10,353 nucleotides of DNA from a virus (IMGVR_UViG_2531839233_000017), one strand, 5' to 3'. Shown: positions 1 through 10,353, numbered from the stretch's first letter. The notes: generated by a model from the sequence alone, not told the origin. Program-made: numbers and translations.

Positions 1-129
1 AGTTCTGCTACCACTCATATCACCAAAAAAGCAGATAAAAAGAAAAGCACGGCAACCACCAAAAAGACCCAGAAAACAGCGAAAAAAGCCGCCAGTAAAA
101 GTACGACCAAAAGCAAAACAGACCAGTAA
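1..129 (+). CDS. 3' end of an upstream CDS (partial, start outside window); Lys/Thr/Ala-rich low-complexity C-terminal tail
   Basis: Frame 1 is open from base 1 to TAA at 127-129 (…TKKADKKKSTATTKKTQKTAKKAASKSTTKSKTDQ*). The stop is followed by an AAGGG Shine-Dalgarno and the ATG at 140. Frame 2 is also open across this A-rich stretch, so the frame assignment is uncertain. Confidence 0.3.
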   Translation, partial: SSATTHITKKADKKKSTATTKKTQKTAKKAASKSTTKSKTDQ

Positions 130-139
130 GGGCACACCG

Positions 140-475
140 ATGACGCTGGCGCGTATGGCGGTATCGTTGCCATGTAGTCAGGCGCAGGATGGGCAGGCGA
201 CGTTATGGCTATCGGTCATCGCATTTGGTAAGCAGGCCGACTTCCTGGCTAAACATCAAAAAGGCGACGTTGCCAGCGTATCCGGCACGATGCAGGTCAG
301 CCAGTGGACCGGACAGAACGGGGAAACGCGGCAGGGTTATCAGGTTATTGCAGACAGCGTAATCAGTGCCCGTGCGGCACGTCCTGGCGGGAACAGACGC
401 AAAACCACAGGCACACAGGGTAATCAGCCACCAGCGGGAGGCGATGACCCTTACGGTGACGGTATTCCGTTCTGA
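140..475 (+). CDS. SSB-like protein with a short N-terminus (partial OB-fold, Gly/Pro/Gln-rich linker, acidic C-terminal tip ending DGIPF)
   Basis: ATG at 140 preceded by AAGGG at 7 nt. The central segment ATLWLSVIAFGKQADFLAKHQKGDVASVSGTMQVSQWTGQNGETRQGYQV aligns by eye with the second half of the E. coli SSB OB-fold (W-x-V-x-FGK … KG … WTDQSG). The C-terminus GGDDPYGDGIPF resembles the SSB acidic tip (DDDIPF). The first ~50 residues of a canonical SSB are absent. Confidence 0.55.
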   Translation: MTLARMAVSLPCSQAQDGQATLWLSVIAFGKQADFLAKHQKGDVASVSGTMQVSQWTGQNGETRQGYQVIADSVISARAARPGGNRRKTTGTQGNQPPAGGDDPYGDGIPF

Positions 476-485
476 GGGGGTGGCG

Positions 486-758
486 ATGGTACATGACCGC
501 ATAGCGGAAGAACTCGAGGCGAAAGGCTTTTACCGGAGGGCGGCGGCGCGATGGGGTGAAGTCATGCTGCTGGTGGAGACAGACAAGGAACGGCATCAGG
601 TTACGATGCGACGGCTGGAATGTTCCAGGAAGGCACAGAAGCCACCGGAGCCGCCGGATAACTTCGGAGACCTGAGAAAGGCAGTCGATCGCACTTATGC
701 TGAAATGGGTATAGATGGTGTAAGCGATGAAATATGGCGTAATTACCCAGACAGCTAA
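486..758 (+). CDS. PerC-family-like small transcriptional regulator (90 aa)
   Basis: ATG at 486 lies 5 nt after GAGGGGG. The N-terminal core MVHDRIAEELEAKGFYRRAAARWGEVM matches my recollection of the PerC/Pch family signature (AE-LE-G-RRAA-RW-EV). The longer track ORF from 366 overlaps the SSB-like gene and lacks an RBS. Confidence 0.5.
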   Translation: MVHDRIAEELEAKGFYRRAAARWGEVMLLVETDKERHQVTMRRLECSRKAQKPPEPPDNFGDLRKAVDRTYAEMGIDGVSDEIWRNYPDS

Positions 759-763
759 TCAAC

Positions 764-787
764 AGCCGGAGAAATCCGGCTTTTTTT
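764..787 (+). terminator. Rho-independent terminator after the PerC-like gene
   Basis: Hairpin AGCCGGAG-AAAT-CCGGCT followed by a run of seven T, directly after the stop at 758. Confidence 0.6.
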
Positions 788-882
788 GCACCAGTTGAAA
801 CGGTATGGCGCATTACCGGGTTTTCGTCACGGTCAGGCATAGTTACTATCTGAAACAAACAGACACAACAGAGGAAAAAACA

Positions 883-1107
883 ATGCCGATGAAATTTGAT
901 GAGATATTAAAACAGCGTGATAAATACCATGCTGACAACATGGAGACGATGAGCATCAATGATTACCGCGCATTCCTGGAGACGGGCGCACTGATTGAAA
1001 AGGATCAGCATGGTTTTGTGAGATGTGCTCTGTCCGGTGAAATGCTGGCGGTAAATCCTGAACAGATAGATGCATTGATAGAATTTCTGAAAGGGATCAG
1101 GGACTGA
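883..1107 (+). CDS. hypothetical protein (74 aa)
   Basis: ATG at 883 preceded by GAGGAAAAAACA (AGAGGA Shine-Dalgarno). Sequence MPMKFDEILKQRDKYHADNMETMSINDYRAFLETGALIEKDQHGF… has no motif I recognise. The track ORF from 805 has no RBS. Confidence 0.5.
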   Translation: MPMKFDEILKQRDKYHADNMETMSINDYRAFLETGALIEKDQHGFVRCALSGEMLAVNPEQIDALIEFLKGIRD

Positions 1108-1117
1108 GCACGCATAC

Positions 1118-1140
1118 AGCCGGAGCAATCCGGCTTTTTG
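1118..1140 (+). terminator. Rho-independent terminator after the 74-aa gene (near-duplicate of 764-787)
   Basis: Hairpin AGCCGGAG-CAAT-CCGGCT followed by TTTTTG. Stem is identical to the terminator at 764-787. Confidence 0.6.
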
Positions 1141-1156
1141 TCATTTTTTGTAAATT

Positions 1157-1187
1157 ATTTGTTCGTGGTTGTTCCACGTTGTTCACT
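1157..1187 (+). promoter_or_regulatory. Three helically phased TTGTTC hexamers (10-bp register) upstream of the capsid operon; candidate operator or activator site, possibly overlapping a weak sigma70 promoter
   Basis: TTGTTC at 1159, 1169 and 1179 (TTGTTCGTGG TTGTTCCACG TTGTTCACTG). The 15-mer TTGTTCCACGTTGTT recurs at 8754-8768. A possible -35 TTGTTC (1179-1184) and -10 TATTTT (1201-1206) sit 16 bp apart. Confidence 0.4.
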
Positions 1188-1261
1188 GACAGGATCGGCA
1201 TATTTTACCCGAACTGAATCATGAGTATTCTCGCCCGTGGTGCCAGGACGCTGGGGCCACT

Positions 1262-1307
1262 TTCCCGCCTGTTAATGTGCTCGCCAATATTCATTACCAG
1301 GCGGGAA
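1262..1307 (+). promoter_or_regulatory. Long inverted repeat in the capsid-operon leader (10 to 11-bp perfect stem, about 26-nt loop)
   Basis: TTCCCGCCTG (1262-1271) is the exact reverse complement of CAGGCGGGAA (1298-1307); flanking T1261/A1308 extend the stem to 11 bp. Confidence 0.4.
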
Positions 1308-1361
1308 AACGATCGGTGCGATTGCTGATTTCCTTATGAAAAACGGTTGAGTTTTTGCCGC

Positions 1362-1399
1362 GTCCTGGAGTTCCTTACTTAACCCCAGGACTTTTTTTT
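1362..1399 (+). promoter_or_regulatory. Terminator-like hairpin plus T8 immediately before the capsid start codon; its 3' arm contains the only Shine-Dalgarno-like sequence
   Basis: GTCCTGG (1362-1368) pairs with CCAGGAC (1385-1391) across a 16-nt loop, followed by TTTTTTTT (1392-1399) and then ATG at 1400. AGGA at 1387-1390 lies inside the stem, 9 nt from the ATG. Confidence 0.45.
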
Positions 1400-2557
1400 A
1401 TGCCGAGAATAATCGAATTACGCCAGCAGAAAACCGCCATTAAAAATCAGATGCGCGACATGCTGGAGAACGCGGAAAAAGAAAACCGCAGCCTTAACGA
1501 TGCAGAGGGCGCAAAATTTGACGAATTACGCGCTAAAGCTGAATCCCTCGATAAAGACATTTCCCGCCTTGAAGCCATTGCAGACGAAGAGCGCAGCAAG
1601 CCAGGTAAAAGCAGCCAGACCACTGACCCGGCAGAACTCCGCAACTACATCCTGACAGGTGAAACCCGCGCATTAAGTACAGGCGTTCCCGCTGATGGTG
1701 GTTATACCGTTATCCCCGAACTGAACACCGAAATCATGCGAATGCTGACGGATGAATCCACCATGCGCCGCATCTGTACCGTGAAGAAAATCAGCAGCAA
1801 CGAGTTTAAGCAGCTTGTTTCCGCTGGCGGTGCGACCGTTAACCACGGTGAAGAGGGTAAGACACGCGAACAGACCAGCACCCCGCAGATTAACGAGGTG
1901 AGCATTAAGCTGTATCCGGTCTATGCGTACCCGCGCACCACACAGGAAATCGTGGATTTTTCCGATGTGGACATCCTTTCATGGCTGACGGGTGAGATTG
2001 GCGACACCTTCACGGAAACCGAAGAAAGCGATCTGGTTGTGGGCGACGGTGACAAAAAAGCAAAAGGTTTTTTATCCGTACCCCGTGCAGAGAAGAACGA
2101 CAAAGAGCGTGATTTTGGTACGTTGCAGGTAATTAAACCTTCCGAATCTCTGGCGTGGACATCTGCGGACCCGCTGATCGACCTGAAATTTGCATTACGT
2201 AAAAAATACCGCAAAAACGCGGTCTGGGTGGTTAACTCCACGACGGCGGCAAAACTTCAGAAGGTGAAGAACGCGAACGGTGATTACATCTGGCGCGACC
2301 GTTTACAGGCGGGTGATCCTGATACGTTGCTGGGCCTTCCGGTCGAATATCTGGAGTTTATGCCTGATAACGTTATTGCCCTGGGTGACTTCAAACGCGG
2401 TTACTACATTGTTGATCACGAAACAGGTGTTCGCACCAGACCGGACAACCTCACAGAGCCGGGTTTCATCAAAATTTTCACGCAGAAATATTTAGGCGGT
2501 GGCGTGGTGGATTCGAACGCGATCAAGATTCTGGAACTGCCACAGGACGACGATTAA
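1400..2557 (+). CDS. Major capsid protein, HK97 fold, with N-terminal coiled-coil delta/scaffolding domain
   Basis: 385-aa ORF. The N-terminus ELRQQKTAIKNQMRDMLENAEKENRSLNDAEGAKFDELRAKAESLDKDISRLEAIADEE is a typical HK97-family delta domain; the remainder has the usual HK97-family capsid length and composition. ATG 1400 is preferred over the track's TTG 1355 because it sits after the leader hairpin and gives a canonical N-terminus. Confidence 0.9.
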   Translation: MPRIIELRQQKTAIKNQMRDMLENAEKENRSLNDAEGAKFDELRAKAESLDKDISRLEAIADEERSKPGKSSQTTDPAELRNYILTGETRALSTGVPADGGYTVIPELNTEIMRMLTDESTMRRICTVKKISSNEFKQLVSAGGATVNHGEEGKTREQTSTPQINEVSIKLYPVYAYPRTTQEIVDFSDVDILSWLTGEIGDTFTETEESDLVVGDGDKKAKGFLSVPRAEKNDKERDFGTLQVIKPSESLAWTSADPLIDLKFALRKKYRKNAVWVVNSTTAAKLQKVKNANGDYIWRDRLQAGDPDTLLGLPVEYLEFMPDNVIALGDFKRGYYIVDHETGVRTRPDNLTEPGFIKIFTQKYLGGGVVDSNAIKILELPQDDD

Positions 2558-2567
2558 CAGCATACAG

Positions 2568-2596
2568 AAGGGGCTTAAAAGCCCCTTTAGTGTTTT
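2568..2596 (+). terminator. Intrinsic terminator or attenuator between the capsid and protease genes
   Basis: Hairpin AAGGGGC-TTAAAA-GCCCCTT (2568-2587) followed by TAGTGTTTT. Confidence 0.5.
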
Positions 2597-2611
2597 ATGG
2601 GTGAAAAAATT

Positions 2612-3169
2612 ATGAAGAGTATGGAAATCCGGTCATCGGAAATCACCACCAGCGCCAGCAACACGCTTACAGGCTACGTTGTTCGCTGGGATAACCTTTC
2701 AGAGCTGCTATGGGGGGAGTTTTACGAAAAATTCCAGCGGGGAGCGTTTACTGAATGGCTTGCGGCGGGTAATGACGTTCGCGGCCTGTATGAGCATGAC
2801 CACAGCATGTTACTGGGGCGCACCCGTTCCGGCACGCTGAAACTGGAAGAGGACGAAACAGGGTTACGCTTTGAACTGACCCCACCGGATACCAGTACAG
2901 GGCGCGACGTTATCGAACTGGTTAAGCGTGGGGACATCTCGGGGATGAGCTTTGGCTTTCGCTCCCGTAAGGATGTATGGGATACCACAACAGATCCATG
3001 CGTGCGCACCGTGCTGGTGGCGGAACTGTACGAAATTACCGTTACATCGGTACCGGCTTACCCCGATTCCGGCGTGGAGCTGGCCCGCCGTTCCCTGTAT
3101 GAGCAGCACCCCGAAAAAATGCCGCGTGCGGATAATCGCCGCTGGTGGGCGGATTTAGCGGGGGTGTGA
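2612..3169 (+). CDS. Prohead maturation protease, HK97 family (S78/U35-like)
   Basis: Motifs YEHDHS (candidate catalytic His) and ISGMSFGF (candidate catalytic Ser), with typical length. ATG 2612 has GGGTGA 7 nt upstream; the track start 2597 abuts the terminator T-run with no RBS. Confidence 0.88.
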   Translation: MKSMEIRSSEITTSASNTLTGYVVRWDNLSELLWGEFYEKFQRGAFTEWLAAGNDVRGLYEHDHSMLLGRTRSGTLKLEEDETGLRFELTPPDTSTGRDVIELVKRGDISGMSFGFRSRKDVWDTTTDPCVRTVLVAELYEITVTSVPAYPDSGVELARRSLYEQHPEKMPRADNRRWWADLAGV

Positions 3170-3170
3170 T

Positions 3171-4382
3171 ATGTGGCCTTTCAGAAGAAAAAAAGAGCAG
3201 CGCAGCATGACGCTTGATGAGTTTATGGCGCTGGCTGGCACATCGAACACGGGGGCGGGTGAGTACGTATCATCGGGGACAGCGGAATCACTGCCCGCCG
3301 TCATGAACGCCGTGACGGTCATCTCTGAGGCGGTGGCTACCATGCCGTGTTACCTGTACCTGGTACGCAATGAGAAGGGGAAGGAGGCCCGCGAGTGGCT
3401 TGATTCTCATCCGGTCGATCATATCCTCAACGAGCGCCCGAACGCGTGGCAGACGCCCTATCAGTTTAAGCGAATGATGGTCCGCCACTGCCTGTTAAAC
3501 GGTAATGCTTATGCGGTGATTCAGTGGGGGCGTGATGGTTTTCCGGTGGCTTTGCACCCTTACCCGCCGCAGTCGGTGAACGTGGAGCAGACAGGCGAAC
3601 ACAACTGGCGCTATTGCATCACTGACGCCTACACCGGAAACACCCACAACTATTTACCGTGGGAAGTACTTCACCTTCGTTACTCCACGGATGACGGCTT
3701 TATGGGGCGCTCACCTGTAACCATCTGCCGCGAATCGCTGGGGCTTGGGCTGGCCCAACAACGCCACGGCGCGAGCGTGATGCGTGATGGCATGATGGCG
3801 GCAGGGGTTATCACGTCAGGCGAATGGCTGGACGGCGTGAAGGGCAAACAGGCATTAGCCGCACTGGAACGCTACAAAGGGGCCAGAAACGCCGGAAAAA
3901 CGCCCATCCTTGAAGGGGGTATGAGCTATCAGCAGCTGGGCATGAGTAATCAGGATGCTGAATGGCTGGCCTCCCGTCGCTTTACCATTGAAGACATCGC
4001 CCGAATGTTCAACGTCTCGCCGATTTTTTTGCAGGAATACAGCAACAGCACCTACAGCAATTTCAGCGAGGCAAGCCGCGCATTTCTCACCATGACGATG
4101 CGCCCGTGGCTGGCGAACTTTGAGCAGCAGATAAAAAACGCCCTGCTGGTGGCCTCGCCTGTACCTGGTATCCGGTATCAGGTGGAGTTTGACAGCGCGG
4201 ACCTGTTACGGGCCACACCTGGCGAACGCTTTGCCACCTATGAGCGCGGCATCAAATCCGGCGTTATGTGCCCGAACGAAGCCCGCGAACGTGAAGGACT
4301 GTCACCGCGTGATGGTGGTGATGAGTTCAGCCAGGCATGGAAACAGGAAGTAAAAATCAGCGAGGGAGAAAAACCGGAATGA
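3171..4382 (+). CDS. Portal protein, HK97 family
   Basis: 403-aa ORF of typical HK97-family portal size, sitting in the head module. The start overlaps the protease stop (TGAtATG) and has a GGGGG Shine-Dalgarno. Confidence 0.88.
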   Translation: MWPFRRKKEQRSMTLDEFMALAGTSNTGAGEYVSSGTAESLPAVMNAVTVISEAVATMPCYLYLVRNEKGKEAREWLDSHPVDHILNERPNAWQTPYQFKRMMVRHCLLNGNAYAVIQWGRDGFPVALHPYPPQSVNVEQTGEHNWRYCITDAYTGNTHNYLPWEVLHLRYSTDDGFMGRSPVTICRESLGLGLAQQRHGASVMRDGMMAAGVITSGEWLDGVKGKQALAALERYKGARNAGKTPILEGGMSYQQLGMSNQDAEWLASRRFTIEDIARMFNVSPIFLQEYSNSTYSNFSEASRAFLTMTMRPWLANFEQQIKNALLVASPVPGIRYQVEFDSADLLRATPGERFATYERGIKSGVMCPNEAREREGLSPRDGGDEFSQAWKQEVKISEGEKPE

Positions 4383-4717
4383 ACATAGGGCGACTGCGTG
4401 ACAGGATAACGATTCAGACCCTGAAACAGACCAGAGCCATGACGGGCGAAATACTCGAAACGTGGGAGGACGGTCACACACTCTGGGCAAGCGTGAACAT
4501 GATCAGCAGCAAGGAGGCCATTTCATCGGGCGCAGAGCTGGCGATTGGTACCGTAAGGATCTGGATACGGTACCGGAAGGACATCAACGCCACCAGCCGG
4601 ATAAAGGTCAGTACGGGGCCGCTGGCGGGGCGTGTACTGAATATCATCGGGCAGCCGTTGCCGGATGTCGCCAGGACACGCCTTGAAATTCTTTGTCGTG
4701 AGGGCGCGGAAAAATGA
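4379..4717 (+). CDS. Head closure / head-tail adaptor protein (Phage_H_T_join-like)
   Basis: MNIGRLRDRITIQ … ETW … LWASV … IRYRKDI … LEILCRE matches the head-closure family pattern (GRLRxRITIQ, ETW, IRYR, LELLC). ATG 4379 overlaps the portal stop (ATGA) and has GAGGGAG 10 nt upstream. Confidence 0.8.
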   Translation: MNIGRLRDRITIQTLKQTRAMTGEILETWEDGHTLWASVNMISSKEAISSGAELAIGTVRIWIRYRKDINATSRIKVSTGPLAGRVLNIIGQPLPDVARTRLEILCREGAEK

Positions 4718-5010
4718 CAGAAGAACTTATCACCCTGGAAGAAGTGAAACTCCATTGCCGCATCGATGGCGACGAGGAAGACCAGTTAATCAGCGGATAC
4801 ATTGCCGCATCGCTTGAGGCGTGCCAGATACACATAGGCAGGCGCTTTGATGACGGGCTGGAGTTCACGCCAGCCATAAAGATTGGCTGCATGATGTTTA
4901 TCGCTCACCTGTATGAAAATCGCCAGATTGTCGCGGATAACGCAAAAACACGCGTACCCATGACGATTGGTGCACTCTGGACGGCTTACCGTGATGTGGG
5001 GGTGTACTGA
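4714..5010 (+). CDS. gp6-like head-tail connector protein (Phage_connect_1-like)
   Basis: LITLEEVKLHCRIDGDEEDQLISGYIAAS … HLYENR is the characteristic signature. ATGA overlap with the previous gene; GAGGG RBS. Confidence 0.8.
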   Translation: MTEELITLEEVKLHCRIDGDEEDQLISGYIAASLEACQIHIGRRFDDGLEFTPAIKIGCMMFIAHLYENRQIVADNAKTRVPMTIGALWTAYRDVGVY

Positions 5011-5450
5011 TGCCGTGGCAACCATTAAGACGATGCACAGAACCAGGCTGTAACAGGCGCGTGAAGTCCGGCAAGTGTGAGGAGCACAGGCGGGCGGCAT
5101 GGCGTGCAGAGGATGCCAGACGAGGACACCGCCGCGCGCGTGGGTACTCCAGACAGTGGGACAAATACCGCGCCATGTATCTGAGTAAAAACCCGTTATG
5201 CGTGCGATGCCTTGAGAAGGGGATATATACGCCCGCCGTGGTGGTGGATCACATTATCCCCATCGATGGCGGTGATGATGTTCTCTTCTGGCCCGAATGG
5301 AACCATCAACCATTGTGTCAGGCGTGCCATAACCAGAAAACGAAATGGCTTGATCCGGCAACAAAAAGCAAGCGTGCCGCAGGTGGATTTCGTGAAGAGG
5401 AAGAACGGGCCGCTAACCGCAATAACTGGATGTATGACGCTGATGAATGA
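5010..5450 (+). CDS. HNH endonuclease (terminase-associated)
   Basis: Cys/His motif CVRCLEKG … VDHIIPIDGGDD … NHQPLCQACHNQKT. Start overlaps the previous stop (TGATG). It sits directly upstream of terS/terL, as in HK97-type cos phages. Confidence 0.88.
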   Translation: MPWQPLRRCTEPGCNRRVKSGKCEEHRRAAWRAEDARRGHRRARGYSRQWDKYRAMYLSKNPLCVRCLEKGIYTPAVVVDHIIPIDGGDDVLFWPEWNHQPLCQACHNQKTKWLDPATKSKRAAGGFREEEERAANRNNWMYDADE

Positions 5451-5616
5451 GCGGGAACAAAACCGCCTTATCCGTGGACTTATAAGGCAGCGTGACGCAT
5501 GGAAGACACAGGAAACAGGGCATAAAGATAAAGCGTCAGGACGCGCAGAACGCATCACAGCGAAGCGATTAACCGACCGTGACCGCGAGGTTATGGAATG
5601 TTTCCGCAATCGCTGA
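5443..5616 (+). CDS. hypothetical small basic protein (about 57 aa); uncertain
   Basis: ATG at 5443 (or 5434) overlaps the HNH stop. Arg/Lys-rich (MNEREQNRLIRGLIRQRDAWKTQETGHKDKASGRAERITAKRLTDRDREVMECFRNR). Weak RBS, no recognisable motif. The long track ORF from 5212 is a shadow of the HNH gene. Confidence 0.3.
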   Translation: MNEREQNRLIRGLIRQRDAWKTQETGHKDKASGRAERITAKRLTDRDREVMECFRNR

Positions 5617-5628
5617 TGAGGCTGTATG

Positions 5629-5672
5629 ACGGGGTGGGGGGCGTTTTCAGGACAAACCCGACCCCGCCGGGC
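5629..5672. other. Candidate cos / packaging-initiation region (G-rich imperfect inverted repeat upstream of terS)
   Basis: GACGGGGTGGGGGGCG (5629-5643) and CCCGACCCCGCCGGGC (5657-5672) are partially complementary G/C blocks in the otherwise AT-rich intergenic region between the HNH-side genes and terS. Confidence 0.25.
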
Positions 5673-5739
5673 ACCGAACGCCTCCTCAAATTTTTATGCA
5701 CGGGAATTTTTTGAAAAATAATCTGGCGAAAAAATAAGC

Positions 5740-6096
5740 ATGGCAAGACCACCGAAAGCCCCCGCCTACCTGGATGATATCGCCGTGAAGCAGTGGCGGG
5801 AAAAATCGCGGCAGCTTGCGGAACGGGGTGACCTGACTCCCGCCGACTGGAGTAATCTGGAACTGTATTGCGTCAATTACTCGATATACCGGAAAGCCGT
5901 CGCAGACCTTGCGGCGCGCGGGTTCAGCATTGTTAACAGTCAGGGCGGAGAGAGCAGAAACCCCGCATTAAGCGCGAAATCCGACGCGGAAAGAGTGATG
6001 ATAAAAATGGCCTCCTTGCTCGGTTTTGACCCGATAAGCCGCCGTAAAAATCCACCGGAAACAGAAGAAGAGGACGAGCTTGACCGCCTGGAATAA
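5740..6096 (+). CDS. Terminase small subunit, P27 family
   Basis: N-terminus MARPPKAP; internal LELYCVNYSIYRKA … GESRNPAL … GFDPISRRK matches the P27-family TerS pattern. Directly precedes terL. Confidence 0.85.
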   Translation: MARPPKAPAYLDDIAVKQWREKSRQLAERGDLTPADWSNLELYCVNYSIYRKAVADLAARGFSIVNSQGGESRNPALSAKSDAERVMIKMASLLGFDPISRRKNPPETEEEDELDRLE

Positions 6097-7741
6097 GTAC
6101 GCAGAAGACGTAAAAACGGGCAAAATTCCGGCCTGTAAACGGTTAAAACAGGCTGTTAAACGGTACTTTTCGGACCTTAAAAGCCCCCTTTACACGTTCG
6201 ATCGTGAGGTTGTGGAGCGGTTTATTGCCTTTTCCAGGGTGTGCCCGCACGTAAAAGGACCGATGCGTGGCAGACCCATTGAGCTGGAGCCGTGGCAGCA
6301 GTTCGCCTTTGCGTGCATCCTCGGCTTTAAGGTTAAGGCCACCGGACGGCGCAAATACACGAGCGCCTTTATCGAAGTGCCGCGCAAAAATGCGAAATCC
6401 ACGACCGCCGCGATTCTGGCTAACTGGTTTTTGATTATGGAGAACGGTCAGCAGGATATCTACACCGCAGCGGTGAGCCGTGACCAGGCGCGGATCGTCT
6501 TTGATGATGCGCGTCAGATGTGCCTTTTATCCCGACCGTTACGCAGGCGGGTGAATATTCAGGCGCATAAGGTGATACACCCGAAAAGCAACAGCCTGTT
6601 AAAGCCGCTGGCAGCAAAAGCGGCAACCATTGAAGGTACAAACCCGAGTCTTGCCATTGTGGATGAATATCACCTGCACCCTGACAACGGGGTTTATTCC
6701 GCGCTTGAACTGGGAATGGGGGCGCGTCCGGAGGGGCTGTTATTTGCCATCACCACATCGGGGAGCAACGTTGTTTCAGCCTGTAAACAACACTACGACT
6801 ATTGCTGCCAGATACTGGATGGTGAAGAGGTGAACGAATCCATGTTCGTGCTGATTTACGAGCTGGATGATGAAAGCGAGGTTGACGATCCGGCGATGTG
6901 GATAAAGGCGAATCCCAATATCGATGTTTCCGTCGATCGTGAAAAACTGGCCTCAACCATCCAGAAAGCGCGGGGAATACCGTCGCAGTGGGTGGAGATG
7001 ATGACAAAGCGATTTAATATCTGGTGCCAGGGGGCTACCCCGTGGATGGGTAACGGCGCATGGGCTGAGTGTGCCGGAACGTTCACGGAGGAAGATTTAC
7101 ACGGCCAGGAGTGTTACGCGGGGCTGGATTTATCATCAACCAGCGATATTTCCAGCGTATGCTATGCCTTTCCGGTCGGTAAAACCATTATGCTGATTTC
7201 CCGTCATTATCTGCCGGAGTTCCAGCTACAGAACCCCGCCAATAAAAACCGCGCTGTCTATCGTCAGTGGGCTAAAGCGGGCTGGATACGCACAACGCCT
7301 GGCGACTGCATTGATTACGACCGGATCAGAGATGACATCATGCAGGACGCGGAGAAATTTCATATCAGGCTGGTGGGCTTTGATACGTGGAACGCCACGC
7401 ATCTCAGAACGCAATTACAGGGGGCAGGTTTTGAGGTGGAGCCGTTCCCGCAAACCTACCTCAGATTCAGTCCGGCGGCGAAATCGTTCGAAGTTTTTGT
7501 TAACCGCAGGGTGATTGTGCATCGTGGCGATCCGGTGTTGTCCTGGTCGATGAGTAACGTCGTGATGCAGAGTGACGCGAACGCCAATATCAAGCCGAAC
7601 AAGAAAAAATCACCGAACAAGATAGACCCGAGCGTGGCGGCACTGATGGCGTTTGGTACATTCCAGGCAGAGCATGAGGATTTTGCTTTTGATATAAGCG
7701 ACAGCCACCGCCAGAAACTGGAAGAATTCAGCGGGGTGTAA
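6080..7741 (+). CDS. Terminase large subunit (ATPase/nuclease)
   Basis: 553 aa. Walker A-like VPRKNAKST, Walker B-like LAIVDEYH, C-terminal nuclease-type region. Probable TTG start at 6080 (AGGA 5 nt upstream) overlaps the terS 3' end by 17 nt. Confidence 0.92.
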   Translation: MTAWNKYAEDVKTGKIPACKRLKQAVKRYFSDLKSPLYTFDREVVERFIAFSRVCPHVKGPMRGRPIELEPWQQFAFACILGFKVKATGRRKYTSAFIEVPRKNAKSTTAAILANWFLIMENGQQDIYTAAVSRDQARIVFDDARQMCLLSRPLRRRVNIQAHKVIHPKSNSLLKPLAAKAATIEGTNPSLAIVDEYHLHPDNGVYSALELGMGARPEGLLFAITTSGSNVVSACKQHYDYCCQILDGEEVNESMFVLIYELDDESEVDDPAMWIKANPNIDVSVDREKLASTIQKARGIPSQWVEMMTKRFNIWCQGATPWMGNGAWAECAGTFTEEDLHGQECYAGLDLSSTSDISSVCYAFPVGKTIMLISRHYLPEFQLQNPANKNRAVYRQWAKAGWIRTTPGDCIDYDRIRDDIMQDAEKFHIRLVGFDTWNATHLRTQLQGAGFEVEPFPQTYLRFSPAAKSFEVFVNRRVIVHRGDPVLSWSMSNVVMQSDANANIKPNKKKSPNKIDPSVAALMAFGTFQAEHEDFAFDISDSHRQKLEEFSGV

Positions 7742-7754
7742 TGAGGTCAGCAGC

Positions 7755-8036
7755 ATGACAGAAGCCGAACTACTGGGATTAATCCGCCGCGTATCTGGAA
7801 TCAGCCAGCAGGCTGACGAACAGACCACGCAGCCGGACAGCGTGACAGCCGAAAATTATGCGCGTGTTGTTGCTGAGGTGATGTGCCGTGATGGTATCCA
7901 GCTTAATGATGTTGATATGCGCAACATACGGATCCGCGTTCTTGAAATGCTGGCCTACAATCGCCGCGTTGAACTGCATCGGGAGAAAGAAAAAATAACG
8001 TACCACTGGAAGAAGCCGGAGCGGTTGCGGCGGTAA
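7755..8036 (+). CDS. hypothetical protein (93 aa), last gene of the island-side operon
   Basis: ATG 7755 with GAGG 8 nt upstream, 14 nt after the terL stop. No recognisable motif. The stop codon lies inside the first copy of the GGCGGTAACT repeat. Confidence 0.5.
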   Translation: MTEAELLGLIRRVSGISQQADEQTTQPDSVTAENYARVVAEVMCRDGIQLNDVDMRNIRIRVLEMLAYNRRVELHREKEKITYHWKKPERLRR

Positions 8037-8455
8037 CTGGTTGATATTTTCGAAATTCGCCAGCGGCGAACATCGGGGAAACCAGCCTAACCCGTTGATT
8101 CTTTCGGAAACAGCCATTGGCGGAATCCGGCGCGGTAACTTGCTGATATTCCCGATAACGCAAAATTGCGTGGCTGAATGAACATTATGATTACTTATGA
8201 TTACGCAGATGATTAAGGCCTAAACCGTTGATTCTTCCCAATTTCCACAGACTGTGGAAGTTGGCGCGGTAACTTACTGAGATTAAAGCAAAGCGCAAAA
8301 TTGCGCCGACTACATCCCTCACATGCGAAATTTTCGCAGTTTAATTACTCGCCAGTTTGATCGTTAACCCGCTGATATTTTCGGGAACCTCAATTTGAGG
8401 AAGTCGGCGCGGTAACTGGTTGATACTTTCGACCTCCTCAATTTGAGGAGGTCGG
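8027..8455. repeat. Array of four composite repeat units: 22-bp direct repeat GGCGCGGTAACT-NNN-TGATATT, each followed 4 to 9 bp later by a different palindrome, with a second direct repeat CCGTTGATTCTT about 37 bp upstream of three of them
   Basis: Core copies at 8029-8048, 8129-8150, 8263-8284 and 8405-8426. Palindromes at 8056-8070 (TTCGCC-AGC-GGCGAA), 8158-8171 (ACGCAA-AA-TTGCGT), 8293-8308 (GCGCAA-AA-TTGCGC) and 8430-8454 (CGACCTCCTCAA-T-TTGAGGAGGTCG). Second motif at 8092-8103, 8225-8236 and variant 8369-8383. Confidence 0.8.
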
Positions 8456-8743
8456 GGCACAGAAAAACAACGAATATGTTGTTTTTGGGAATGGTCATAA
8501 TGACCACGCAGACCATCAAGGCAACCACAACGAACATCGTTACGGTTGGAGCTTTTACCCCACTGGGGGAAAGGTATTACGATAATCATAACACCTACCG
8601 AACAGGTAAAACCCACCAGCCTGATTAACAGTTAACCGGAAAAAAAATCCGGTAGCCCCGTTATGGGGATCCCCATATCGACATTAACGCCCCTCATGAA
8701 TTGGTGCGCTTCCCCCTGGAAAGATTACCCGCCTGTATATTTC

Positions 8744-8769
8744 TTGTGTCTATTTGTTCCACGTTGTTT
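8744..8769 (+). promoter_or_regulatory. Second set of three helically phased TTGT(T/G)(C/T) hexamers, sharing a 15-mer with the capsid-operon upstream site
   Basis: TTGTGT at 8744, TTGTTC at 8754, TTGTTT at 8764 (10-bp register). TTGTTCCACGTTGTT at 8754-8768 is identical to 1169-1183. Confidence 0.4.
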
Positions 8770-8786
8770 CATACAGTGCACCGAAC

Positions 8787-8810
8787 GGTGTAGTTAATGG
8801 TGTAGTCAAT
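8787..8810 (+). repeat. Tandem 12-bp direct repeat (GGTGTAGTTAAT / GGTGTAGTCAAT)
   Basis: Two adjacent 12-mers differing at one position, about 85 bp from the phoQ stop. Confidence 0.5.
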
Positions 8811-8892
8811 TTGCTGTTTTTAGCACTTTTTGCAGTGTGGGTTGTTTAATTAAATCAATGGGTTGCCTTGCTGTGGTGATAAAAGGACATAT

Positions 8893-10353
8893 TTATTCAT
8901 CTTTCGGCGTAGAATGCTGGCGACCAAAAATCACCTCCATCCGCGCACCGCCAAGCATGCTCTCTCCGGCGACGATTTTACCCTCATATTGCTTGGTGAT
9001 TTCGCGGGCTACCGCCAGCCCCACACCTTGCCCAGGGCGTAAAGTATCAACCCGTTGACCACGGTCGAAAATGACCTCTCGCTTGCTTAATGGAATACCG
9101 GGGCCATCATCCTCGACCACAATATAGAGATGCTCGTCGGTTTGCCTTGCAGAAATTTCGACAAACTCGAGGCAATATTTACAGGCATTATCCAGTACAT
9201 TGCCCATCACCTCGACAAAATCGTTCTGCTCACCGACAAAGCTGATCTCTGGCGAAATATCGAGAGAGATATTGACCCCTTTGCGTTGATACACTTTGTT
9301 CAGCGCCGAGGTGAGATTGTCCAGCAGTGGGGCGACCGGATGCAGCTCGCGGCTGAGCAATGTCCCGCCGTGCATACTGGCACGATGCAGGTAGTAGCCA
9401 ATTTGCTGTGAAATGCGGCTGATTTGCTCCAGCATTACCGGTTCAGCATCACTGACGCTCATCTTTTCACTACGTAGAGAACGCAGCGTACTTTGCAGCA
9501 CCGCCAGTGGCGTTTTCAGACTATGGGTCAGGTCGGTGAGCGTTGTACGATATTTGTCGTAACGTTCGCGTTCACTTTTTAACAATCGGTTCAGGTTTCG
9601 TACCAGACTGGTCAGTTCTCGCGTTGTGGCTGGATTGAGCAATTCGCGGTTATGTTCTTCCAGTTCGCGGACTTCTTTTGCCAGGGCTTCGATGGGGCGT
9701 AAACTCCACCAGGCGGCGACCCACAGCAGCGGGATCACTAACAGCAGATTGGCTGAGAGCACATAGATAAACCAGCTCCAGACCATATAGGAACTTTTTA
9801 GCTCCACCGGAATGGTATCCACCACCACAATGGTTAACTTTGGCATCCGCGATGTTGCCGGGTAGACGTTTACCGCCACCGAGTGGGTCATCTCCGCGTC
9901 GTCATCATCTTCCCGCACTTCCTGCAACTGTTGCTGTATCGAATGATCTCCACTCAGCAAGAGGCTGGTATCGTTAACATCCGCTTCAATTTCATGAAAA
10001 CCATTCGATTTCAGCCAGTCAGGCTGGATCATCTTCATCAGCCAGGGCACGTCACGTTGCGCCCATAAAAGCTGCCCGTTCTCATCATAAATTAGCGTCA
10101 TGGTGGGGCTTTGCTTGTCGATATTTTCGGGTAACTCGACATGCAACTTATTGTTTTCCCACTTCGCAAGGGTATAGAACAGATTGCTCTCGCCACGTAA
10201 CAGCCGAAACGTAGTTTTATCGAAACTGACGCTATAACCGATCAGCGCGACCATTCCGTAGGCAAGCGAAAGCACCAGTACTACCGCTGCCGTTGCCAAC
10301 AGAAAACGTACCCGCAGCGAGAGCGGGAAAAAAAGACGCAGTAATTTTTTCAT
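8893..10353 (-). CDS. phoQ: Sensor histidine kinase PhoQ of the PhoPQ two-component system
   Basis: 486-aa ORF, full length. [33 protein letters not shown]…, periplasmic acidic patch [12 protein letters not shown]-box [16 protein letters not shown]-binding G-boxes DDGPGIP and GQGVGLAVA. Matches E. coli PhoQ from memory. The start codon is at the very end of the window. Confidence 0.97.

Follow-up and report, generated by a model that had tools for sequence, protein, structure and literature searches.

A draft-contig window ending in phoQ very probably carries the right-hand part of the capsid-forming satellite EcCIEDL933, together with candidate non-coding elements

[quoted passage not shown] Its published genes comprise int, alpA, rep, capsid, protease, portal, head-tail connectors, HNH and the small and large terminase subunits (TerS and TerL), and there are no tail genes (Alqurainy et al.). 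Here we analysed a stretch of 10,353 nucleotides filed as a virus (IMGVR_UViG_2531839233_000017), referred to below, at its full length, as the window; it corresponds to bases 3-10355 of the draft contig AOEE01000082.1 from assembly GCA_000335315.2. The window almost certainly consists of ~8.8 kb from the right-hand side of EcCIEDL933, with phoQ after it, in other words part of a cf-PICI located between roxA and phoQ.

Two kinds of described element provide the closest comparisons. Classical PICIs such as EcCICFT073 and EcCIED1a share with EcCIEDL933 a left half carrying int, alpA and pri-rep, AlpA-dependent induction, PerC-like accessory genes and unidirectional, rightward transcription. However, they encode no major capsid protein (MCP), portal, protease or TerL, and instead use helper capsid proteins and the helper TerL, with Rpp redirecting TerS. 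Phages HK97 and HK106, in turn, have the same families of TerS, TerL, portal, S78 protease, MCP, head-tail adaptor (Ad1), head closure protein (Hc1) and HNH protein. In contrast to HK97, which has a genome of 39.7 kb and a T=7 capsid, EcCIEDL933 has 15.5 kb, a T=4 capsid in which no covalent crosslink was detected, and no tail, lysis or lambdoid early genes. In the papers of the authors who described the family, a cf-PICI is an element of ~10-18 kb with int, regulation and replication modules and a complete packaging module of its own, but without a lysis or complete tail module. The EDL933 locus identical to the window agrees with each of these sequence traits, and the functional traits of the family, namely induction by a helper, small capsids built of island proteins, packaging of its own DNA exclusively and the use of helper tails, have been published for this sequence.

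A megablast search of 5,426 complete E. coli genomes showed positions 115-10353 to be 100% identical to O157:H7 strains, among them EDL933 (NZ_CP008957.1), and a base-by-base comparison of the window with EDL933 found 0 mismatches over the 10,239 bases that follow base 114. At least 80% of the window was present in 236 of the 5,426 genomes. The MCP encoded in the window is identical at 385/385 residues to PDB chain 9gyi_B; 9GYI is the deposited model of the T=4 capsid of EcCIEDL933, the genome of which is given as 15.5 kbp (He et al., bioRxiv 10.1101/2025.02.11.637232). Given this MCP and the DNA identity to EDL933, the window is therefore taken to be EcCIEDL933 itself. The two agree in their DNA from base 115 on, in MCP, attachment (att) site, size and gene set. 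They differ in the first ~115 bases of the window, which are a fragment of mepH, and in the left third of the island, which is absent from the window because the draft contig starts there.

The complete island can be read in EDL933. From roxA, its left part encodes an integrase (Arm-DNA-bind_3, PF13356, and Phage_integrase, PF00589) and AlpA (PF05930, 5.4e-17), followed by several small open reading frames (ORFs), including an Icd-like one, then DUF4222 and the pri-rep gene, the product of which is a 710-aa DUF927 protein (DUF927, 1.4e-48). The intergenic region after the rep gene holds ~14 TAACCCGCA repeats in both orientations (positions 13340-13680 of the EDL933 locus, L001), which we read as origin iterons, and an 83-aa ORF and a full-length SSB gene precede the genes equivalent to those of the window. 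As the earlier note on this DNA had anticipated for a satellite, the tyrosine integrase, AlpA and pri-rep all lie within 8 kb leftward wherever a complete genome matched window positions 115-10353 at 100% identity and its left-hand DNA was read; they belong to the EDL933 locus and not to the window itself.

The site of integration was also located. The roxA-phoQ spacer at the empty site of strain K-12 measures only 75 bp, and comparison of this site with the two EDL933 junctions revealed that each end of the island bears a 10-bp att core, GGACATATTT. The left att repeat that had been proposed as a check thus exists, as part of a 10-bp duplication flanking an element that is 15,461 bp long between the att cores, close to the published sizes of 15.4 and 15.5 kb. 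The family is also described as using a specific att site that is flanked by a duplication and that prophages never occupy; of this, the GGACATATTT duplication and the K-12 empty site were seen here. Within the window, the attR core occupies 8885-8894 and overlaps the phoQ stop codon (8893-8895), the minus-strand phoQ gene (8893-10353; ORF list and EDL933 match) being chromosomal flank outside the island. On the EDL933 chromosome, potAB, pepT and roxA flank the island to one side, and phoQP and purB to the other side.

Tail, tape-measure and lysis genes were found neither among the ORFs of the window nor between roxA and phoQ in EDL933, where lambdoid early genes are likewise missing, and both flanks proved to be chromosomal (roxA/pepT and phoQ/phoP/purB), in agreement with the tail-less block that had been proposed. 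This bears directly on the idea that the locus is an ordinary or defective HK97-like prophage with a rearranged head module, the tail and lysis genes of which lie just outside the window. The structural proteins do all belong to families of HK97-type phages, as such a prophage would require, but the identical complete locus is 15.5 kb, not ~40 kb, is bounded by roxA and phoQ, and contains no tail, tape-measure, lysis or early genes and no TerS-TerL-portal-protease-MCP order. In addition, a megablast search of 50,697 phage records returned partial matches only, with identities of 76-81%, and of the related records the most complete is itself a satellite-sized genome of 16.5 kb (LR881103.1); moreover, the weighted gene repertoire relatedness (wGRR) to any phage is at most 0.09 (Alqurainy et al.). 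We therefore regard a prophage as extremely improbable. A gene transfer agent like that of Rhodobacter capsulatus (RcGTA) was also considered and rejected, with int, pri-rep and att present and tail genes absent; in the PDB, the MCP has its next-best relatives among RcGTA proteins, to which the portal is related too, a likeness (2.9e-46) at the level of the family only. Every sequence check that the earlier note had proposed for its reading of the locus as a capsid-forming satellite, and not a prophage, accordingly supports that reading.

The packaging module of the window consists of ten co-directional genes on the plus strand, all intact according to a six-frame ORF list and a reading-frame check, and eight of them have Pfam families far above the curated cut-offs. 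The MCP gene (1400-2557; 385 aa, HK97 fold, Phage_capsid 2.6e-61) is followed by genes for a prohead serine protease (2597-3169; 190 aa, Peptidase_S78 3.3e-48), the portal protein (3171-4382; 403 aa, Phage_portal 5.9e-91, with portal relatives in the PDB), the HK97 gp7-like head closure protein Hc1 (4379-4717; 112 aa, Phage_HCP 1.1e-22 and phrog_25 Hc1 9.3e-34) and the gp6-like head-tail adaptor Ad1 (4714-5010; 98 aa, Phage_connect_1 8.4e-12 and phrog_40 Ad1 7.9e-36). Next come an HNH endonuclease (5010-5450; 146 aa, HNH 1.2e-08), a type of protein described as a packaging cofactor of HK97-type terminases (Alqurainy et al.), a 60-aa ORF (5434-5616; phrog_3173, also in the RefSeq annotation), TerS of the P27 family (5740-6096; 118 aa, Terminase_4 1.3e-23), TerL (6080-7741; 553 aa, TerL_ATPase 4e-26 and TerL_nuclease 1.1e-49) and finally a 93-aa ORF (7755-8036; phrog_1561), which comes after TerL in each related island that reaches that far. 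Neither the 60-aa nor the 93-aa ORF matched a Pfam family, and both fall only into PHROG families of unknown function. From the MCP gene to the 93-aa ORF, with gaps counted as positive and overlaps as negative, the genes are spaced by +39, +1, -4, -4, -1, -17, +123, -17 and +13 nt.

Overall, ORFs, Pfam families and the EDL933 locus confirm what had been noticed beforehand from the sequence, namely a ten-gene, co-directional and mostly overlapping block of capsid and packaging genes with no tail genes and with phoQ next to it. The genes of the block placed at 1355-8036 stand, but both of its limits move: the MCP gene begins at the ATG at 1400, not at the TTG at 1355, and island DNA runs past 8036 through a repeat array to the att core, ending at 8894. 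Likewise, the head closure gene starts at 4379 according to the RefSeq annotation, and not at 4337.

The unusual gene order was also borne out when checked against the annotation of HK97, which reads TerS-TerL-portal-protease-MCP-Ad1-Hc1-tail. Where HK97 has portal-protease-MCP-Ad1-Hc1, EcCIEDL933 has MCP-protease-portal-Hc1-Ad1, and these inversions of MCP-protease-portal and of Hc1-Ad1 are real and common to related islands. It had been suggested that the rearranged order, together with the SSB and PerC accessory genes, might be the signature of a new cf-PICI lineage. Although the order is indeed unlike that of HK97, the DNA is 100% identical to the prototype EcCIEDL933, the related islands that we examined have the same order, the gene organisation is described as conserved across the cf-PICI family (Alqurainy et al.), and PerC-like genes are widespread in Gram-negative PICIs. 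The suggestion of a distinct lineage is thus not upheld, and there is next to no chance that it is correct.

Upstream of the module, on the same strand, the window contains the 3' part of ssb (115-475; Pfam SSB 5.8e-11, supported by annotation of and comparison with EDL933). SSB has 136 aa in EDL933, but the window retains an ORF of 111 aa only (140-475), owing to foreign sequence in front of base 115. It is followed by a gene for a PerC-family regulator (486-758; Pfam PerC 3.1e-45, RefSeq annotation), the PerC-like accessory genes being common among Gram-negative PICIs in the literature. Between this gene and the MCP gene lies a 354-bp cassette (764-1135, plus strand) with a 74-aa ORF (883-1107, phrog_1957), flanked by two nearly identical hairpins resembling intrinsic terminators, at 764-781 and 1118-1135 (AGCCGGAGnAATCCGGCT and then a T run). 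No 74-aa gene was called between the PerC and MCP genes in the related islands L003, L005 and L006, in which the spacing is shorter, and the cassette looks as if it had been gained or lost at this position. A further terminator-like hairpin (2567-2588, plus strand) lies directly 3' of the MCP gene; HK97 too has a terminator hairpin in the same place, annotated as a putative terminator after its MCP gene, gp5. A simple sigma-70 scan upstream of the MCP gene gave no convincing promoter, with fewer matches than in shuffled sequence, and an Rfam scan of the entire window detected no RNA family at E<=0.1.

Published experiments account for much of how these genes are used. Both HK106 and HK446 serve as helper phages that induce the island and mobilise it at high frequency, whereas an alpA mutant shows no induction and no transfer (Alqurainy et al.); AlpA is an activator, and in the classical PICI EcCICFT073 helper phages are known from the literature to turn on alpA transcription. 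When the packaging-module genes were each mutated, transfer was abolished, except for the hypothetical gene 1792, mutation of which reduced it severely, and replication and helper titres were unchanged (Alqurainy et al.). The 60-aa and the 93-aa ORF are the candidates for gene 1792. Island transfer survives mutations in the capsid and packaging genes of the helper but fails with mutations in its major-tail or tape-measure genes, and electron microscopy showed small capsids of 46 x 42 nm, the packaging of phage and island DNA being mutually exclusive (Alqurainy et al.). Cryo-electron microscopy then resolved a T=4 HK97-fold shell without a detectable crosslink, and proteolytic maturation of the MCP was proposed to be similar to that of HK97 (He et al.). 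The released tail-less capsids are able to dock onto HK106 tails, and a pair of island adaptor/connector genes decides which helper tails fit (He et al.); judging by annotation, the head closure and gp6-like adaptor genes of the window would be this pair.

The life cycle published for this sequence runs as follows. A helper phage (HK106 or HK446) induces the island, AlpA being required as activator, and the island then excises, presumably through Int, and replicates; the Pri-Rep gene and the adjacent iteron-rich region are located to the left of the window. MCP, protease and portal build the small T=4 HK97-fold capsid, which the head-closure and adaptor proteins finish, and the TerS, TerL and HNH proteins of the island package island DNA only. 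Finally, the filled tail-less heads join tails made by the helper.

HK97-type phages place the cohesive end site (cos) between HNH and TerS. In the island, the 123-nt gap between the 60-aa ORF and terS (5617-5739) is G-rich (GACGGGGTGGGGGGCG...GACCCCGCCGGGC), and its position, together with a related linear record, makes it the likely cos region. This record, LR881103, begins 22 nt before TerS and ends, after HNH and the small ORF, at the equivalent of window position 5653; the cos of the island is therefore suggested to lie here. If this placement is right, packaged DNA would begin with TerS-TerL as in HK97, and the module would only seem to end with the terminase because of the point at which attP opens the circle, which would explain the unusual order in part.

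The same record, LR881103.1, is filed as 'Escherichia phage vB_KppS-Ant' (16.5 kb, an induced prophage) and has the gene order of EcCIEDL933, with ~77% DNA identity over TerS-TerL. Unlike EcCIEDL933, it carries another accessory gene after TerL, which is 2.3 kb long and annotated as a tape measure, and it has neither the box-plus-hairpin array nor the TTGTTCCACGTTGT element described below. Its gene set comprises int, primase, MCP, protease, portal, Hc1, connector, HNH, TerS and TerL, with no tail module besides the 2.3-kb gene, and it would seem to be a cf-PICI deposited in GenBank under the name of a phage.

Besides its genes, the window contains conserved non-coding sequences. One of these is an element of 14-25 nt, TTGTTCGTGGTTGTTCCACGTTGTT, located at 1149-1183 on the plus strand, ~220 nt upstream of the MCP start. 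Copies of TTGTTCGTGGTTGTTCCACGTTGTT occur in the window at 1149-1183 and 8734-8768, and in the EDL933 locus (L001) at 7392-7426 and, on the minus strand, at 8769-8802; the element is present in both att arms and in 2-4 minus-strand copies between int and alpA. It is kept in islands that have a different Rep or a different flanking locus, with ~0.1 copies expected by chance. AlpA is 94% identical between the EDL933 island and L003, and shares its family with the P4 excisionase Vis (literature), which makes it a reasonable candidate binder. TTGTTCGTGGTTGTTCCACGTTGTT is a candidate binding site of a conserved regulator of these islands, most plausibly AlpA.

The right att arm (8734-8811, plus strand) combines a copy of the TTGTTCCACGTTGT element with two tandem GGTGTAGTTAAT 12-mers (8787-8810), and a 75-nt segment matching it sits just upstream of int at the island's left end. 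The tandem 12-mers recur there, at 7445-7468 of the EDL933 locus, and are thus found in both att arms. They are present in both arms of the two roxA-phoQ islands for which both arms were available, and absent at the right end where an island borders on another locus, the left ends of such islands being unavailable. They are candidate arm-type sites for the integrase, which bears an Arm-DNA-bind_3 domain.

The repeat array that had been noticed in front of phoQ is real as well, and comprises seven units at 8020-8460. Each unit consists of a conserved box, GGTAACnnGyTGATAtTTTCG, followed by a hairpin that differs in sequence between units. Six of the boxes match the consensus of integration host factor (IHF), WATCARNNNNTTR, on the minus strand, and this pattern occurs nine times in the window, compared with 0.66 expected from shuffles. 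In related islands the box is found directly after the 93-aa ORF, in 2-6 copies, including islands with another chromosomal locus on their right flank, and shows no co-variation with the type of Rep. We rejected the idea that the array is a dispersed chromosomal repeat of the repetitive extragenic palindromic (REP) or enterobacterial repetitive intergenic consensus (ERIC) type, since it occurs in 1,336 of the 5,426 genomes, with a median of one place per genome; the single locus with a partial match that we inspected is another cf-PICI at the roxA-phoQ site. The array of boxes and hairpins, next to attR, may be a cis-acting, possibly IHF-binding, element. That it and the TTGTTCGTGGTTGTTCCACGTTGTT element are undescribed cis-elements of this lineage can be put forward only tentatively.

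We also considered whether the 14-nt element or the array might be Rep iterons. This was rejected, as the repeats differ between EDL933 (TAACCCGCA) and L003 (CTGTCTACC), both of which keep the array box and the 14-nt element. As a separate observation, the Pri-Rep proteins of EDL933 and L003 are alike over their first 163 residues only, and the repeats that follow their genes are different, TAACCCGCA versus CTGTCTACC, the latter lying after the rep gene at 9370-9605 of L003. On this sequence comparison, the DNA-recognition part of Rep and the origin look as though they may be exchanged as a module.

Several points weigh against the assignment to EcCIEDL933 and against the roles suggested for its non-coding elements. 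The window itself is without int, alpA and pri-rep, and it opens, where the draft contig begins, with ~115 bases of mepH fused to the interior of ssb, so the island of the source strain could be rearranged or truncated. The 94% identity of AlpA is compatible with AlpA binding but proves nothing, and we found no paper that mentions the position of cos, a binder of the 14-nt element or a role for the array.

The left end of the window deserves particular attention in this respect. Megablast found no match for bases 1-135, probably owing to a low-complexity sequence of lysine codons, but a blastn search with 11-mers identified bases 1-119 as an internal, in-frame piece of mepH (a peptidoglycan endopeptidase gene), 100% identical in thousands of genomes. 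This piece is joined inside ssb, and both sources share AAAAC at bases 115-119. One explanation would be that a real chromosomal rearrangement has brought mepH up against the middle of ssb and cut the capsid and packaging half off from int, alpA and pri-rep, leaving a truncated, immobile remnant in the source strain. The AAAAC shared at the junction and the position of the mepH piece at the very start of contig AOEE01000082.1 would fit, two samples are listed with this contig, and since the contig ends in the low-complexity stretch, assembly could break there even if the junction were real. Against this, the mepH-ssb junction occurs in 0 of the 5,426 complete genomes, and all DNA to the right of it is intact and identical to EDL933. 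Moreover, mepH of K-12 lies on the same strand as the island, ~546 kb downstream, and therefore no simple deletion or inversion would suffice; a very large tandem duplication or a circle would be needed. The ~120 nt of foreign DNA at the contig end also correspond to about one short read, as might be expected of a chimeric draft end. We consequently think a truncated remnant unlikely, and a chimera of the assembly probably explains the left end better than a real rearrangement does.

Published work already covers the element and its class, the functions of its genes, its helpers and the structure of its capsid. As a discovery, the coding part of the window thus adds nothing, and the residual novelty lies in the non-coding elements and the odd contig end. 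Nevertheless, the earlier recognition of the locus as a capsid-forming satellite shows that a cf-PICI can be identified from raw sequence alone, and the corrected annotation, with the MCP start at 1400 and the island end at 8894, is of practical use. The likely cos region, the candidate regulator site and the array of IHF boxes offer possible handles on the regulation, integration and packaging of cf-PICIs. If its proposed role is true, the TTGTTCGTGGTTGTTCCACGTTGTT element would form a physical link between excision, autoregulation and expression of the capsid operon under control of the AlpA type.

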